Shown here one piece after another: positions 2,350 to 6,490 of a stretch of 64,000 nt of DNA. The translations under genes and the position numbers were made by a program. The notes beneath the pieces are model-generated. The model saw nothing but the letters and a program-made list of their open reading frames with translations. It was not told the origin of the DNA and did not search any database. The first letter of the stretch is position 1; each line of letters opens with the position of its first letter. Source of the stretch: Escherichia phage EcS1; sequence record NC_055721.1; one strand, given 5' to 3'.

Positions 2350-3687
2350 ATGGCTATTCCTTCAGTAACGATTACCCCAGTTAATGCCTCACCACAACTT
2401 GGTCAGACATTAACTATCAATTCAGTAGTTGAATTCGACCCAACAGATGTTTATACATCGTATAAATGGGAACTTTCTGGCGCAGATACAGGCGTTACTA
2501 CTGCAACATACACTAAAGCCAATATCACAAGTGCTGATGCTGGTTCTTACGTATTAAAAGTTATGCATGGTGTTGATGCAGGTTCTGCAACTGAAACCGC
2601 TTCAAGTCCTGCCGTTATTACTACTTTACCGGCAACAACTGTTTCTATTGTTTCAACCACTACTGACATTTATGTCGGTGATACATTAACTATTACTGCT
2701 ACCCCAACTGGTGTTCCTTCTGGCGCAACAGTAGGCGCATATGAATGGTCTAAAGGTGGTACTGTAGTTTCGGGCCAAACTACTTCTACATTGACTAAAA
2801 CAGTTGCGGCTGGCGATGCCGGTTCTTATACTGCTAAAGTATCTTATACTGTAACAGGCCAAGCACCAATTAAAACTGCTGCATCTAATGCTATCTCTGT
2901 TACTGTTGGACCTGCATTAGCATTTGCTACTAACCTTAATGCAACAGCTTCTGTATCAACAGGCCAAGCTCTTACCCTAACTGTAGCAGCATCCGGTGGT
3001 AAATCTCCATATACATATCAATGGAAGAAAGGAAGTGCTAACATAGGAACTAATTTAAATACATTTATAGTTCCTTCTGCGGATTCAACAACTGCAGGAA
3101 CTTATACTGTTGAAGTGACAGATGCTGCAAGTCATAAAATCACATCAGCTTCTTGTGTTGTTACAGTGGTGCCTGCTTTATCTTTGAGCACCGATTTGTC
3201 TGCGACTAAATCAGTTGTTTCAGGTAAAACTCTTACTCTAACTATTGTTGCAGCTAATGGCAAAACGCCTTATACATATCAATGGAAAAGAGCTGGCGTT
3301 GAAATCCCAAGTGAAACAGCTGCTACATTTACTAAATCTGCGTCACCAGCGGACGCAGGTACGTATACATGTGAAGTGACAGATGATAATAACGATAAAA
3401 TCACATCTAATACATGTGTTGTAACTGTTAGTTTATTGCCTGATTTAGAAGTTCTTTGGACTGTACATCCTATCCCATGGCGAGATACAAGTTTCACTCC
3501 GTTAGGTTATTGGGTATTAGATGAAATCTTACTTCAAAAAGCTGATGGCAAAGACTGGAAAACTGATTACGCTACTTATCATTACACAGAAGAAGTTCAA
3601 ACTATTTTAGAAGCATTTAATGCTATGGGTGAAGTTGAAATTCAAGACTCGCGTAATGGGTATATCCACAAAATGAGTTTAATTTAA
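2350..3687 (+). CDS. hoc: Hoc-like outer capsid decoration protein: four Ig-like repeats plus C-terminal capsid-binding domain
   Basis: Four ~90-aa repeats, the last two ending in AGTYTVEVTD / AGTYTCEVTD with internal YTYQWK (Ig-like signature); C-terminal ~80 aa (HPIPWRDTSF...) non-Ig domain; T4 hoc position. Confidence 0.7.
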   Translation: MAIPSVTITPVNASPQLGQTLTINSVVEFDPTDVYTSYKWELSGADTGVTTATYTKANITSADAGSYVLKVMHGVDAGSATETASSPAVITTLPATTVSIVSTTTDIYVGDTLTITATPTGVPSGATVGAYEWSKGGTVVSGQTTSTLTKTVAAGDAGSYTAKVSYTVTGQAPIKTAASNAISVTVGPALAFATNLNATASVSTGQALTLTVAASGGKSPYTYQWKKGSANIGTNLNTFIVPSADSTTAGTYTVEVTDAASHKITSASCVVTVVPALSLSTDLSATKSVVSGKTLTLTIVAANGKTPYTYQWKRAGVEIPSETAATFTKSASPADAGTYTCEVTDDNNDKITSNTCVVTVSLLPDLEVLWTVHPIPWRDTSFTPLGYWVLDEILLQKADGKDWKTDYATYHYTEEVQTILEAFNAMGEVEIQDSRNGYIHKMSLI

Positions 3688-3696
3688 GAAGGTTTT

Positions 3697-4194
3697 ATGG
3701 CTGATAAATGGACAACAGTTAACCCAATCCCGTGGCGAGATACAAGTTTTACGTATCTCCCTTACTGGCTTTACGATATTATAGTTAAAGCCTTTAAAGA
3801 CGGTAATGATTGGCGTGATTATTCTGAAACGAAATACAAATTAGAATTTGATACCTTGATTCAAGCATTCGAAGACTACGATGACATTTCAGTTATTGAA
3901 TCACGTAATGGTAATCTACATGATTTATCTAATTTTACACCAGTAACAATCACAGCTAAATCACCTGTGCCAGCTTTTAAAGTTGGTGACCCAGATTTAG
4001 TTATCAGCGCATTGTTCACAATTGATCCAGTTAAATTAGGGCAGCATGCAGTGTTATCTGTTGATGCTTCTGGACATGCTGTATTAAGCAGCAGTGCTGT
4101 ACCATCCGTTAAGGCTGTTTCGGCTGGGACAACTGTGGTGACATGTACTATTGGTGATGTATCAGAAACAATTAGTTTAGTTGTAACTGTATAG
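3697..4194 (+). CDS. Hoc-related protein with inverted architecture: N-terminal capsid-binding-like domain plus C-terminal Big_2-like Ig domain
   Basis: N-terminal 80 aa (NPIPWRDTSFTYLPYW...ESRNGNLH) paralogous to Hoc C-terminal domain (HPIPWRDTSFTPLGYW...DSRNGYIH); C-terminal part resembles a bacterial Ig-like group 2 domain. Confidence 0.6.
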   Translation: MADKWTTVNPIPWRDTSFTYLPYWLYDIIVKAFKDGNDWRDYSETKYKLEFDTLIQAFEDYDDISVIESRNGNLHDLSNFTPVTITAKSPVPAFKVGDPDLVISALFTIDPVKLGQHAVLSVDASGHAVLSSSAVPSVKAVSAGTTVVTCTIGDVSETISLVVTV

Positions 4195-4231
4195 CAAAAA
4201 GGGAGAGCTTACGCTCTCCCTTTTTTATTTT
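4195..4231. terminator. Bidirectional intrinsic terminator (GGGAGAGC-TTAC-GCTCTCCC with A/T runs)
   Basis: 8-bp GC-rich stem flanked by A5 and T-run between convergent hoc-related gene and inh-like gene. Confidence 0.8.
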
Positions 4232-4938
4232 ATAACTTGGAAACTTGAATTACGCGTTTCACGAACGCGAACTAACCCATCACGCTTAATGTAATATAAA
4301 AGACTTAATATCGTATCAATACCGTAGTGGTGTGGGAACGAATGCGGATTCACTTTCCATTCTGGGTTCTTTGTAATCCATTCATAAATCCACCAAGGTA
4401 GAGTTACATAAGTTAATCCACGTCCAATTTGAGCTAATGTAGGACTGAAATCTTTTGGAAGCTCAAATACCTTTTCAGATTCAATAATCTGTTCAATAGC
4501 TTTTTCAAGAGCAGGGAGATCTTCTTCAGTCATAGGCTTGGTTGGGATAGTTTCAATGCCTTCGCTATGAATAACTGTAACAACTTCACCAATTGGAGCT
4601 TGAATAGAGTTAATGATTTTAGCTTCAACGGAAGGAGCTCCGATAGAATCGATCAAAAGTGTCTTGGCTTCATCTTTAGCTTCATCTTTAAAAACAGAAG
4701 TGCCAGTGAGTTCATCATCAGCTTGAATCAAATCAGAGATACTCATTCCGCCAATATCTTCAGGCATTGGTTCAGAAGCAAGTTTTTTCATTTCTTCTGA
4801 CAAGTCAGCAACCATGTTATCAAATGACTTAGTTTTCTTTAAAGTTATGTTGAAAGTAAGAGCGTAGTCGGCCAGTTTTTCTTTGGCTTCTTTTTTGTCT
4901 AGCTCACGAAGTTCGTCAATATAAATTTTATCAATCAT
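4225..4938 (-). CDS. Hypothetical protein, possibly Inh (prohead protease inhibitor) by synteny
   Basis: 237 aa acidic protein at the T4 inh position (hoc-inh-uvsW); no motif verified. Confidence 0.4.
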   Translation of the reverse strand: MIDKIYIDELRELDKKEAKEKLADYALTFNITLKKTKSFDNMVADLSEEMKKLASEPMPEDIGGMSISDLIQADDELTGTSVFKDEAKDEAKTLLIDSIGAPSVEAKIINSIQAPIGEVVTVIHSEGIETIPTKPMTEEDLPALEKAIEQIIESEKVFELPKDFSPTLAQIGRGLTYVTLPWWIYEWITKNPEWKVNPHSFPHHYGIDTILSLLYYIKRDGLVRVRETRNSSFQVIK

Positions 4939-4953
4939 AGTATAGCCTCAGTG

Positions 4954-4961
4954 TATAAATA
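4954..4961 (+). promoter_or_regulatory. T4-type late promoter box TATAAATA upstream of uvsW
   Basis: Exact TATAAATA about 30 nt upstream of uvsW start; random matches are expected in AT-rich DNA, so the call rests on position. Confidence 0.5.
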
Positions 4962-4990
4962 TATCTATATTTATTACTTAGGAATCTCTC

Positions 4991-6490
4991 GTGGATATCA
5001 ATGTACATTTTGAAGATTATAGTCATGTTCTGATTGAATGCTCAGAGAGCATCTTCTTTGAACTAAGAGACTACTTTTCATTTGAAGCTGATGGCTTCAA
5101 ATTTAACCCACAATACAAATATGGTCATTGGGATGGACGAATTCGCCTTTTAGGTTATGACCGTCGTTTGCCATTTGGACTAGTTGGATTCATCGATAAA
5201 TTTGCTTCCAATATGGATTACAAAGTAGCAATTGACCCTAAAATCAATGAGAAAGAAGATATCGCTCGTGTTGATTTTGATAATTGGTTGAATGCTCTTG
5301 AAATTTATTCTGGGTCTACCAAGATTGAGCCACATTGGTACCAGAAGGACGCCGTGTACACTGGCCTGATGAATCGTAGAAACATTCTTAATTTACCTAC
5401 TTCCGCAGGTAAGTCATTGATTCAGGCGCTCCTGGCACGTTATTATGTTGAGAACTATGTTGGTAAGATTTTAATCATTGTTCCAACAACAGCTTTAGTT
5501 GATCAAATGATTGACGATTTTGTTGATTATCGTTTGTTCAATCGTAAGAATATGCTAGGCATTCGTGGTGGTACAGCTCGTGATTCTGACGCAGAGATTT
5601 ATGTTGCTACTTGGCAAACTGCTGTTAAACAACCTAAAGAATGGTTCAGTCAGTTTGGTATGATGATGAACGACGAATGTCATCTTGCTACAGGCAAAAG
5701 TATTTCATCTATTATTGCAGGCTTAAATAATTGTGCTTTCAAATATGGTCTTTCTGGTTCTTTAAAAGATGGTAAAGCCAATTTGATGCAATATGTAGGT
5801 ATGTTTGGTAATGTTTTTAAGCCTGTGTCAACATCACAGCTTATGGAAGATGGTCAAGTAACTGATTTGAAAATCAACTCTATTTTCTTACGTTACCCTG
5901 ATGAATTCTGTGCTCAAATGAAAGGCAAAGATTATCAGACAGAAATTAAGGTTATCCAAAAAGCTAAGAAACGAAATCTTTGGGTCTCTAAGCTTGCTGT
6001 TAAATTAGCTAAAAAAGAAGAGAACGTTTTCTTGATGTTCAAGAATGCCGAACATGGTAAAGAACTTTTCCAAATGGTTAAAGACCTTGAGCATAAAGAA
6101 GTATTCTTCGTAAATGGTGAAGTTGATACTGATACTCGTAATGCATTGAAAGTAATGGCTGAAAATGGCAAGGGTATTATTGTTGTCGCTTCATACGGCG
6201 TATTCTCTACCGGCATCAGTGTTAAAAACTTACATCATATTATTTTTGCACACCCGGTAAAATCAAAGATCATTGTGCTTCAGACTATTGGTCGTGTACT
6301 TCGTAAACACGTAAGTAAAACAACGGCTCAAGTCTGGGACATTATAGATGATATGGGTGTTAAACCTAAGTCTGCTAATGCTAAAAAGAAATATGTTCAT
6401 TTGAATTATGCATTAAAACATGCTCTTGAACGTATTCAACGTTATGCAGAAGAAAAATTCAATTATGTAATGAAACAGGTAGACTTATGA
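4991..6490 (+). CDS. uvsW: UvsW RNA-DNA and DNA-DNA helicase
   Basis: Close colinear match to T4 UvsW as recalled, including Walker A LNLPTSAGKS and DECH box; GTG start (VDINVHF vs T4 MDIKVHF). Confidence 0.9.
   Translation: MDINVHFEDYSHVLIECSESIFFELRDYFSFEADGFKFNPQYKYGHWDGRIRLLGYDRRLPFGLVGFIDKFASNMDYKVAIDPKINEKEDIARVDFDNWLNALEIYSGSTKIEPHWYQKDAVYTGLMNRRNILNLPTSAGKSLIQALLARYYVENYVGKILIIVPTTALVDQMIDDFVDYRLFNRKNMLGIRGGTARDSDAEIYVATWQTAVKQPKEWFSQFGMMMNDECHLATGKSISSIIAGLNNCAFKYGLSGSLKDGKANLMQYVGMFGNVFKPVSTSQLMEDGQVTDLKINSIFLRYPDEFCAQMKGKDYQTEIKVIQKAKKRNLWVSKLAVKLAKKEENVFLMFKNAEHGKELFQMVKDLEHKEVFFVNGEVDTDTRNALKVMAENGKGIIVVASYGVFSTGISVKNLHHIIFAHPVKSKIIVLQTIGRVLRKHVSKTTAQVWDIIDDMGVKPKSANAKKKYVHLNYALKHALERIQRYAEEKFNYVMKQVDL

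Follow-up and report, generated by a model that had tools for sequence, protein, structure and literature searches.

Escherichia phage EcS1 (Kagamiyamavirus, Tevenvirinae, T4-like) raises the question of how two adjacent hoc-type genes, whose products carry related capsid-binding domains (CBDs, or anchors) at opposite ends, might be used on one capsid. The pair lies in a 64,000-nucleotide stretch of record NC_055721.1 (hereafter, the window) and consists of two forward-strand open reading frames exactly as the first-pass annotation had delimited them, that is, ORF1 (the long form of hoc; 2350–3687, 445 aa, pI 4.78) and ORF2 (a short second hoc-family gene; 3697–4194, 165 aa, pI 4.55). The tandem arrangement is real, but it has already been annotated and described in related phages. 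As an answer to the question, we consider it likely that the two genes form a cassette encoding two Hoc-family decoration proteins that would compete for one site per hexamer and thereby yield a mosaic coat.

ORF1 has the layout of T4 Hoc that had been ascribed to it, with four tandem Ig-like domains (2350–3435; residues ~1–95, 96–186, 187–273 and 274–362) followed by a C-terminal CBD (3442–3684; residues 365–445, HMM envelope) with a DSRNG loop, of the type that we term partner C-type. The protein matches PHROG 1149 (‘Hoc-like head decoration’, E = 2e-64), its residues 97–443 align with T4 Hoc 4–366 (PDB 5vf3_Z, E = 4e-17) and Pfam finds four Ig-type stretches before the CBD (four stretches of Ig_3, E = 3e-23, together with Ig_2, I-set and a PKD match at residues 11–83). 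As in T4 Hoc (PDB 5vf3 and 8t1x; for RB49 Hoc, 3shs), a string of Ig-like domains precedes a C-terminal CBD, the gene neighbourhood is 24.3–hoc–inh–uvsW and the protein is acidic, like the Hoc homologues described in PMC10385173. ORF1 differs from T4 Hoc in having four rather than three Ig-like domains (the extra one being N-terminal) and in its DSRNG loop; moreover, the EcS1 cassette is inverted with respect to the flanking genes when compared with T4 and PEi20, and a second Hoc is absent from T4, each T4 record giving a single CBD match, whereas EcS1 has two. To judge from the sequence, Ig-like domains 3 and 4 of ORF1 are a recent tandem duplicate; the gene contains direct DNA repeats with a 261-nt period (2960–3031 versus 3221–3292 and 3094–3167 versus 3355–3428, 74–75% identity).

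ORF2 departs from the canonical Hoc order (that is, Ig domains N-terminal and anchor C-terminal), to which ORF1 conforms. Its N-terminal CBD (3697–3939; residues 1–81, HMM envelope; ESRNG loop; hereafter, N-type) is followed by one Big_2-like Ig domain (3946–4191; residues 84–165), so the proposed inversion of domain order is borne out, with the anchor occupying residues 1–81 of 165 here and residues 365–445 of 445 in ORF1. Over nearly its full length, ORF2 matches PHROG 14282 (residues 3–163, E = 1.6e-62) and PHROG 11091 (residues 2–163, E = 1.1e-53), both of which are labelled ‘Hoc-like head decoration’ and have the N-terminal-CBD architecture, and it is 100% identical to the EcS1 protein already annotated as ‘Hoc-like head decoration’. 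ORF2 residues 8–74 align with T4 Hoc 294–361, within the T4 capsid-binding domain (residues ~281–376; E = 3e-8), and the AlphaFold (AF2) model of ORF2 matches the C-domain of T4 Hoc in Foldseek (8t1x_X, TMt 0.54), although the first 18 residues of the model, including the first contact strand, are of low confidence.

The single Ig domain that had been predicted at the end of ORF2 is likewise present, as residues ~84–164 form an all-beta structure in the AF2 model (pLDDT 90–97) for which Foldseek returns the C-terminal Ig domain of lambda gpV (2l04), Leptospira Lig Big domains and Big_2-CBM56 (26% identity, rmsd 3.5 Å); there are also matches to BIG2-domain phage proteins. Seven of the 18 aligned ORF2 homologues match Pfam Big_2 (best E = 3.2e-7). 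A domain search with Ig and Big_2 models, which had been suggested as a check, thus finds Ig domains in ORF1, whereas ORF2 itself stays below the Pfam cut-off: Big_2 (PF02368) gives no match to ORF2 at E ≤ 1, and the best Ig-related match, Big-like PF22359, reaches 16.3 bits (E = 0.012) against a cut-off of 27 bits. As ORF2 itself falls under every Pfam Ig threshold, the label ‘Big_2-like’ rests on the fold and on the homologues. Between the Ig domain of ORF2 and those of ORF1, BLASTP detects no significant similarity (E = 0.4).

The two anchors are clearly related. BLASTP aligns ORF1 residues 371–443 with ORF2 residues 7–78 at 47% identity over 73 aa (66% positives, one gap, E = 5e-22), so formal alignment upholds the paralogy that had been read from the two segments by eye, and a six-frame scan of the window with a CBD HMM matches ORF1 365–445 and ORF2 1–81 and no other segment. 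The common motif given for the two anchors holds for PIPWRDTSF, whereas its leading N occurs only in ORF2, with H in ORF1. In T4, one CBD sits at the centre of a hexamer and touches all six gp23* subunits; its conserved contact residues include Arg300, Trp310, Asp313 and the Glu355-Ser-Arg-Asn-Gly359 loop (PMC10385173). Both EcS1 CBDs keep R300, W310, D313 and S356-R357-N358-G359; at position 355 (T4 numbering), ORF1 has D and ORF2 has E, and at the position of His295, which contacts the capsid in T4, ORF1 has His and ORF2 has Asn. The gp23 gene, whose product bears the Hoc-binding loop (residues 326–344, with the contacts D336 and R344 in T4), lies outside the window.

Comparison across phages places the two CBDs in separate clades (N-type, 97%, and partner C-type, 100%, of 1,000 neighbour-joining bootstraps), with 71–81% identity within a type and ~41% between types. 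In Metamorpho, Lemur and KP15, the long Hocs have CBDs with 77–81% identity to that of ORF1 (T4 Hoc, 37%), and the short Hocs have CBDs with 71–76% identity to that of ORF2 (GAP161, 64%). As the CBDs fall into two old clades, the pair is not a recent duplication. A sister grouping of the N-type and partner C-type clades is unsupported (21% bootstrap); a T293 signature (in 25 of the 25 members of the two clades versus 1 of 49 others) lends weak support to a common origin. Fixed differences at or near the T4 interface set the lineages apart: the N-type has Q354I, G308P and E314I, and the partner C-type has E355D, the 49 other C-type and the 18 N-type representatives all having E at position 355. 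The DSRNG loop occurs exclusively in long Hocs with a short partner. Across ~74 representative CBD-bearing proteins, the anchor is N-terminal with further sequence in 15, makes up approximately the whole protein in 4 and is C-terminal in the rest.

Signals read from the sequence are compatible with joint expression. A candidate late promoter on the forward strand (CATAAATA, 2311–2318), which matches the T4 late-promoter box TATAAATA at 7 of 8 positions, lies 32 nt upstream of the ORF1 start and would serve both hoc genes; no perfect TATAAATA is present upstream of or inside ORF1, and the 7/8 match may count against co-transcription. Each gene has its own putative ribosome-binding site, that is, AAGAGGA (2335–2341) upstream of the ORF1 ATG and AAGAAGG (3686–3692) before the ORF2 ATG at 3697, the latter overlapping the 9-nt gap that follows the ORF1 stop codon (TAA, 3685–3687). 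One terminator follows both genes, in the form of a bidirectional intrinsic hairpin (4196–4225; 13-bp stem, T-runs on both strands) between ORF2 and the convergent inh gene, and a terminator pair is annotated at the matching position in phage Metamorpho. ORF1 and ORF2 share a reading frame in EcS1 and in Metamorpho (separated by the TAA and three sense codons), whereas the long and short frames differ in Lemur_ER36 and KP15.

Other hoc loci of T4-like phages, which we compared as the first-pass annotation had advised, show that the pair recurs. An adjacent long-plus-short cassette is found in at least four lineages (EcS1, Metamorpho, KP15 and Lemur_ER36) and on two metagenomic contigs, and its conservation, the separation of the CBDs into two old clades and the apparent third copy of the domain in Inh are what the present analysis adds. 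The Klebsiella phages Metamorpho (Jiaodavirus), KP15 (Slopekvirus) and Lemur_ER36 have the EcS1 gene order with 9–11-nt spacing and anchors orthologous to those of EcS1 in both genes; both members are annotated as Hoc or Hoc-like in Metamorpho and KP15, and in Lemur_ER36 the long one is a ‘head decoration protein’ and the short one a ‘Hoc-like head decoration protein’. The number of display domains differs, in that EcS1 has four Ig domains plus an anchor followed by an anchor plus one Ig domain, whereas KP15 has one Ig domain plus an anchor (177 aa) beside a bare anchor with a Pro-rich tail (91 aa). At the nucleotide level, megablast of the EcS1 locus against a phage collection without EcS1 gave only weak inh matches, to the Edwardsiella phages PEi20 and PEi26.

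The N-terminal-anchor form also occurs by itself. The ‘Hoc’ of RB16, RB43, GAP161, Miller and CfP1 (Pseudotevenvirus) is a full-length homologue of ORF2 (55–57% identity over 98–99%; with Metamorpho, the range for RB16, RB43 and GAP161 is 55–61% over 98–99% of the length), with the same anchor-then-Big_2-like order and 167 rather than 165 aa. It is the only Hoc-family gene in RB16/RB43-type phages and the second of a pair in EcS1: GAP161, JC221, RB16, RB43 and Miller have a single CBD match per record, and in the GAP161 and JC221 gene tables this form is the sole Hoc-annotated gene in the hoc region. Some relatives have two Big_2 domains (245–247 aa), and P0013 has an I-set-type Ig domain after the anchor. 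ORF2 differs from T4 Hoc both in its N-terminal anchor and in its Ig domain, which is of Big_2 rather than I-set type.

The novelty that had been attached to the locus was overrated, as ORF2 was already annotated as Hoc-like, PHROG families cover the N-terminal-CBD form, and dual Hocs and N-terminal CBDs have been published. Enterobacter phage PG7 and Serratia phage Muldoon have two Hoc-like proteins with a common CBD, one of those of PG7 having an N-terminal anchor, and the anchor is proposed to serve for presenting other ligands on the capsid (Fokine et al. 2023, Viruses 15:1517, PMC10385173). The EcS1 arrangement differs from both: the N-terminal-anchor protein of PG7 carries a GDSL lipase domain (511 aa) rather than an Ig domain, the matching gene of its relative, Karamvirus fGh-Ecl01, lies away from hoc beside a topoisomerase gene, whereas the EcS1 pair is adjacent, and both Muldoon Hocs have C-terminal anchors. 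In phage T5, pb10 (164 aa) resembles ORF2 in size and in domain order, with the capsid-binding domain first and an Ig-like domain exposed to solvent at the C terminus, and it binds the hexamer centre as a monomer (PMC5292684). Its Ig domain is related to those of ORF1 (8zvi_a and 5lxk_A, E ~ 3e-15), but its anchor shows no detectable likeness to the Hoc anchor in sequence or fold, pb10 being absent from the ORF2 sequence matches and from the top 50 Foldseek matches; pb10 works like Hoc but stands outside the Hoc family. Our literature search found no paper discussing the EcS1 Hoc genes.

Given that one T4 CBD spans the hexamer centre and that the contact residues are kept in both EcS1 anchors, it can reasonably be inferred, as the first-pass annotation had suggested, that the two proteins compete for, or together occupy, the same hexamer sites. 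Of the conceivable mechanisms, we infer that the most probable is competition for a single site on each hexamer. Both genes are predicted to encode non-essential head-decoration proteins that combine a common anchor with variable Ig-like display domains, and the long and short forms would be transcribed together at a late stage of infection. Once the capsid has expanded, the centre of each hexamer would take one anchor from either protein and, as one anchor touches all six subunits, binding would be mutually exclusive. The head would then carry a random mosaic of acidic fibres, long (~200 Å) or short (~40–50 Å), whose proportions would depend on the relative expression and affinity of the two proteins. 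As has been suggested for T4 Hoc, the exposed Ig domains could lend the head a negative charge and let it adhere weakly to carbohydrates or surfaces. As the N-terminal-anchor form is the sole Hoc in RB16/RB43-type records, it should be able to decorate a capsid alone. In the literature searched, neither EcS1 nor any Hoc with an N-terminal anchor was represented by proteomic data on virions, by cryo-EM or by binding measurements. Two features of the sequences sit less easily with a shared site: the Asn at the His295 position of ORF2 may count against it, and the lineage-fixed interface differences could mean different affinities or different sites rather than simple competition.

The second of these features leads to the alternative that survives best, although we consider it clearly unlikely, namely that the two anchor lineages have subfunctionalized and bind different hexamer classes (for example, vertex-proximal versus other hexamers, or those of the caps versus the cylindrical midsection) or different orientations, producing a patterned coat. 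Such a partition would fit the fixed substitutions at or beside T4 contacts (I354, P308 and I314 in the N-type and D355 in the partner C-type), and T4 Hoc itself is described as having preferred orientations on vertex-proximal hexamers (PMC10385173). However, the invariant core of the interface is identical in both anchors, and the lineage-specific changes may only reflect the end from which the linker leaves the domain. Furthermore, RB16/RB43-like phages have only an N-type Hoc and T4 has only a C-type one, so each type can presumably fill all sites by itself.

It is very unlikely, in our view, that ORF2 is not a virion component in EcS1 at all, but rather a relic with poor expression, or else a soluble protein in which the anchor fold has some other use. 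Its Asn is unique among the named short forms compared (His295 is kept in 15 of the 18 N-type proteins, including every one of those named forms), the KP15-like short partner has been cut to a bare anchor and tail, and a virion mass-spectrometry table for Jiaodavirus lists one Hoc-like protein (208/146 PSM) and no second; as the short gene is not established in those Jiaodavirus phages, this table says nothing either way. Against a relic or a soluble protein stand the intact frame of ORF2 with its own Shine–Dalgarno sequence 9 nt after hoc, the 21 columns that are invariant across its 18 homologues from at least four lineages, the confidently folded Ig domain of the AF2 model and the use of a homologous protein as the only Hoc in a large phage group. 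Read-through of the ORF1 stop codon, which would make the two ORFs partly one fusion (Ig4–CBD–CBD–Ig), is highly improbable and was rejected: the common frame in EcS1 and Metamorpho would permit it, but the frames differ in Lemur and KP15, ORF2 starts at an ATG of its own behind its own Shine–Dalgarno sequence, nothing resembling a read-through signal is seen, RB16/RB43-type phages have the short gene by itself, and TAA is an efficient terminator in E. coli.

Competition for a shared site thus remains the reading that we favour. With the gene annotated, PHROG families in existence and a 2023 structural paper noting two-Hoc phages and an N-terminal anchor, the finding carries little weight as a discovery, and its practical value is modest. 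Hoc is widely used as a scaffold for phage display and vaccines; the existence of natural N-terminal-anchor proteins shows that either end of the docking domain can bear cargo, and the conserved long-plus-short pair would offer a natural system in which to study the sharing of ~155 identical capsid sites by two ligands.

A possible third anchor lies next to the pair. The convergent neighbour inh (minor head protein, inhibitor of the prohead protease; 4225–4938, reverse strand; PHROG 1051, E = 3e-79) encodes a protein whose C-terminal ~65 aa (4234–4425, reverse strand; residues 172–235) appear, on sequence profiles and a structure model, to be a remote copy of the Hoc capsid-binding fold. Pairwise BLASTP similarity between Inh and the CBD is weak; hhalign of Inh against the CBD profile gives a probability of 93% (E = 2.8e-7) in one run and 86.5% (E = 4.5e-6) in another, and the best-conserved motifs coincide (WW, DW and E-T-R-N-S versus E-S-R-N-G). 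The AF2 model of this domain (pLDDT 82–86) has the secondary-structure order of the Hoc CBD, and the rank-1 PDB match of the Inh model in Foldseek is the T4 Hoc C-domain (8t1x_X, TMt 0.55, rmsd 3.7 Å, E = 0.43, prob 0.63). This possible triple use of the module, together with the lineage-fixed interface substitutions including DSRNG, suggests a further reading that we regard as unlikely, in which the Hoc anchor would serve as a portable module for docking at hexamer centres, present three times at the locus (at the Hoc C terminus, at the short Hoc N terminus and, strongly diverged, at the Inh C terminus), and as many as three proteins would occupy these centres in a tuned or partitioned manner as the head matures, in place of a single passive decoration. 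If confirmed, the likeness of fold could locate the poorly understood minor head protein Inh on the capsid. In a copy of Pfam without PF26098 (Phage_Inh_C), Inh had no match; a precomputed PF26098 match sits on an N-type Hoc.

In the window, in which the genes follow the usual T4-type order (end of gene 24, rnlB, 24.2, 24.3, hoc, inh, uvsW, uvsY, genes 25, 26 onward), EcS1 (species Kagamiyamavirus ecs1, Tevenvirinae) has two adjacent plus-strand hoc-family genes, ORF1 (2350–3687, 445 amino acids) and ORF2 (3697–4194, 165 amino acids), and the coordinates proposed in the first-pass annotation match the ORF calls exactly. The T4 Hoc layout proposed there for ORF1 also holds: before the capsid-binding domain (hereafter, the anchor), Pfam detects four stretches of Ig type (Ig_3 at E = 3e-23, together with Ig_2, I-set and PKD), the protein matches PHROG 1149 ('Hoc-like head decoration', E = 2e-64), and residues 97–443 align with residues 4–366 of T4 Hoc (PDB 5vf3). 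ORF1 is therefore a Hoc of the T4 type that has an extra Ig-like domain at its N-terminus. Its third and fourth Ig domains (2960–3428) are, at the DNA level, a fairly recent tandem duplicate (261-nt period, 74–75% nucleotide identity), which fits the variation in domain number (one to four Ig domains) among homologues in the ORF1 clade.

The two proteins share the anchor and, by BLASTP, no significant similarity outside it. ORF1 residues 371–443 align with ORF2 residues 7–78 at 47% identity with one gap (E = 5e-22), and a small HMM of the segment places the anchor at ORF1 365–445 and ORF2 1–81; the claimed paralogy of the capsid-binding segments therefore stands far above chance. The same HMM found no further copies when all six frames of the 64-kb window were scanned. 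ORF2 residues 8–74 also align with T4 Hoc 294–361 (E = 3e-8), a region belonging to the domain that, by cryo-EM, docks centrally on the gp23* hexamer (PMC10385173). The AlphaFold2 model of ORF2 (18 homologues as input; mean pLDDT 86.5, pTM 0.75) is uncertain only at residues 1–18, and shows helices and strands at residues 20–80 followed by an all-beta domain at residues 84–164 (pLDDT 90–97). Model and alignment agree on an anchor that precedes the Ig domain, bearing out the proposed reversal of domain order. The terminal domain is Big_2-like, as had been suggested: a Foldseek search of viral models returned the homologue from Klebsiella phage Metamorpho, other Hocs and many phage proteins named 'BIG2 domain-containing', and Pfam Big_2 is matched by 7 of the 18 aligned homologues (best E = 3e-7), ORF2 itself reaching no Pfam threshold. 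In a metagenomic 184-amino-acid protein (P0013), an N-terminal anchor is followed not by Big_2 but by a classical Hoc-type Ig domain (motif GGTSPYTYVW...AGTYKCVVTD); shuffling of display domains has therefore taken place on either side of the anchor.

The two anchors of this locus do not stem from a recent duplication inside EcS1 but belong to an old, co-inherited cassette. A tblastn search of 50,697 phage records with ORF2 located the anchor at 1,351 places spread over 1,198 records, and roughly one in ten of these records thus has at least two loci that bear it. Some phages (T4, PEi20) have only a Hoc with a C-terminal anchor; many others, including RB16, RB43, GAP161, Miller, CfP1 and JC221, have only a short protein with an N-terminal anchor that is annotated 'Hoc', shares 55–57% identity with the whole of ORF2 and is the single anchor match in its record (the gene tables of GAP161 and JC221 list no other Hoc). 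Adjacent long-then-short pairs occur in Metamorpho (467 and 162 amino acids, both annotated Hoc-like), Lemur_ER36 (469 and 164), KP15 (177 and 91) and two metagenomic contigs (376 and 163; 353 and 91). Among 1.84 billion representative proteins, 60 clusters matched at E ≤ 0.001, approximately eight of which have an N-terminal anchor or the anchor alone; two matched outside the anchor, one further was a spurious repeat protein and the remainder have C-terminal anchors. Across the paired phages, the anchors of the long partners are 77–81% identical to that of ORF1 and those of the short partners 71–76% identical to that of ORF2, whereas the two types share approximately 41% identity with one another and 29–37% with T4. 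In neighbour-joining trees (1000 bootstrap replicates), the N-terminal-anchor (N-type) clade was recovered in 97% and the long-partner clade in 100%, and in each of the six long-partner clade members checked, out of seven, the long gene was followed directly by an N-type gene. Given high identity within types, low identity between them and well-supported clades, the cassette is old and was inherited as a pair. The two clades were sisters in only 21% of bootstraps; a shared origin is hinted at by a threonine at T4 position 293, present in 25 of their 25 members and 1 of the 49 other anchors. In the DNA, the anchor-coding segments 3460–3497 and 3715–3752 form a direct tandem across the gene boundary (starts 255 nt apart; 82% nucleotide identity along 38 nt), which could be a trace of the origin of the pair and, possibly, a recombination substrate for deletion.

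The layout suggests that the two genes form a late operon and are co-transcribed. ORF1 is preceded by a Shine–Dalgarno sequence and by a stretch that matches the T4 late box at 7 of 8 positions (CATAAATA; 2311–2318, read from the sequence); ORF2 starts 9 nt after ORF1 with its own Shine–Dalgarno sequence, no perfect late box lies between them, and a strong bidirectional hairpin terminator (4196–4225) comes after the ORF2 stop and is shared with the convergent inh.

In T4, a single anchor sits slightly off-centre on the hexamer axis, contacts all six gp23* subunits and binds only after capsid expansion (PMC10385173). Residues at the interface or stabilizing its loop are Y293, H295, H299, R300, Y304, W306, W309, W310, D313, Q354, the E355-S-R-N-G359 loop and Y360 (T4 numbering; PMC10385173). 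In a 74-sequence anchor alignment, R300, W310, D313 and S356-R357-N358-G359 are kept in both EcS1 proteins. ORF1 also keeps H295, Q354 and Y360 and has D at position 355 (loop DSRNG, residues 433–437, window 3646–3660), as does each of the seven long Hocs in the paired clade, E occupying this position in 67 of 67 other representative anchors; ORF2 keeps E355 and has N295, I354 and N360, and the differences fixed in N-type anchors near the interface are P308, I314 and I354. As the anchor core is invariant in both proteins and each type serves as the sole Hoc in some phages, the most economical reading is that both products would compete for the one site that each hexamer offers, and heads would carry a mixed coat of long fibres with four Ig domains and short stubs with one. 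Both proteins are acidic (pI 4.78 for ORF1, 4.55 for ORF2). We consider it less likely that the two anchor lineages partition the sites between them, or that the ORF2 product is not incorporated into the virion. A read-through ORF1–ORF2 fusion also ranks below competition: the ORFs share a frame in EcS1 (3685–3699, with only TAA GAA GGT TTT between) and in Metamorpho, but not in Lemur_ER36 and KP15, and the shared frame is therefore probably a coincidence.

The two-Hoc locus is thus real and correctly interpreted, and it adds another case, one that was already annotated, to a phenomenon that has been described. Fokine et al. (2023; PMC10385173) reported 650 homologues of the T4 anchor, two Hocs in Serratia phage Muldoon and two Hoc-like proteins in Enterobacter phage PG7 (one with an N-terminal anchor fused to a GDSL lipase), and suggested that the anchor serves to display other ligands; moreover, the N-terminal-anchor architecture already has PHROGs families, and an existing record for a protein 100% identical to ORF2 reads 'Hoc-like head decoration' or 'Hoc large outer capsid protein'. 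The T5 protein pb10, which matches ORF2 in size and domain order and binds hexamer centres, is an independent analogue. Enterobacter phage fGh-Ecl01, a Karamvirus related to PG7, encodes a 511-amino-acid N-terminal-anchor 'head outer capsid protein' (3492–5027 in its stretch, L007) that corresponds to the PG7-type lipase-domain protein and lies far from hoc, with early genes (dda, dexA) on one side and the gene for the topoisomerase large subunit on the other; the adjacent cassette of EcS1 therefore differs somewhat from the PG7 arrangement.

The convergent neighbour inh (4225–4938, minus strand), encoding the inhibitor of the prohead protease, probably carries a remote homologue of the anchor in its C-terminal ~65 amino acids (residues 172–235, window 4234–4425, minus strand). 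Pairwise BLASTP gave weak but collinear similarity, and hhalign matched Inh to the 74-sequence anchor profile with 93% probability (E = 2.8e-7, 61 columns); with smaller alignments the values were 86.5% and E = 4.5e-6. The motifs best conserved in each family coincide (WW, DW, and ETRNS versus ESRNG). The AlphaFold model of Inh is poor overall, but its last 60 residues (pLDDT 82–86) have the strand and helix order of the ORF2 anchor; the top PDB fold match is the T4 Hoc C-domain, although at E = 0.43. The Hoc structure paper (PMC10385173) does not mention this relationship, and no literature joining 'inhibitor of prohead protease' with Hoc was found in a search that left older T4 literature outside its scope. 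The novelty of the link is uncertain, and it may be at least implicit in Pfam, as an N-type Hoc homologue has a precomputed hit to PF26098, the Inh C-terminal domain.

The EcS1 hoc cassette (2350–4225) lies on the gene 24 strand, convergent with inh and sharing its terminator, as in Metamorpho. In T4 and PEi20, the latter being the closest nucleotide relative of the window, hoc is on the opposite strand, and the cassette has therefore been inverted or replaced in the EcS1 lineage. Beyond inh, the uvsW frame (4991–6490) has GTG at its first possible start, which may be the real start codon; the resulting N-terminus (MDINVHF...) resembles that of full-length UvsW.
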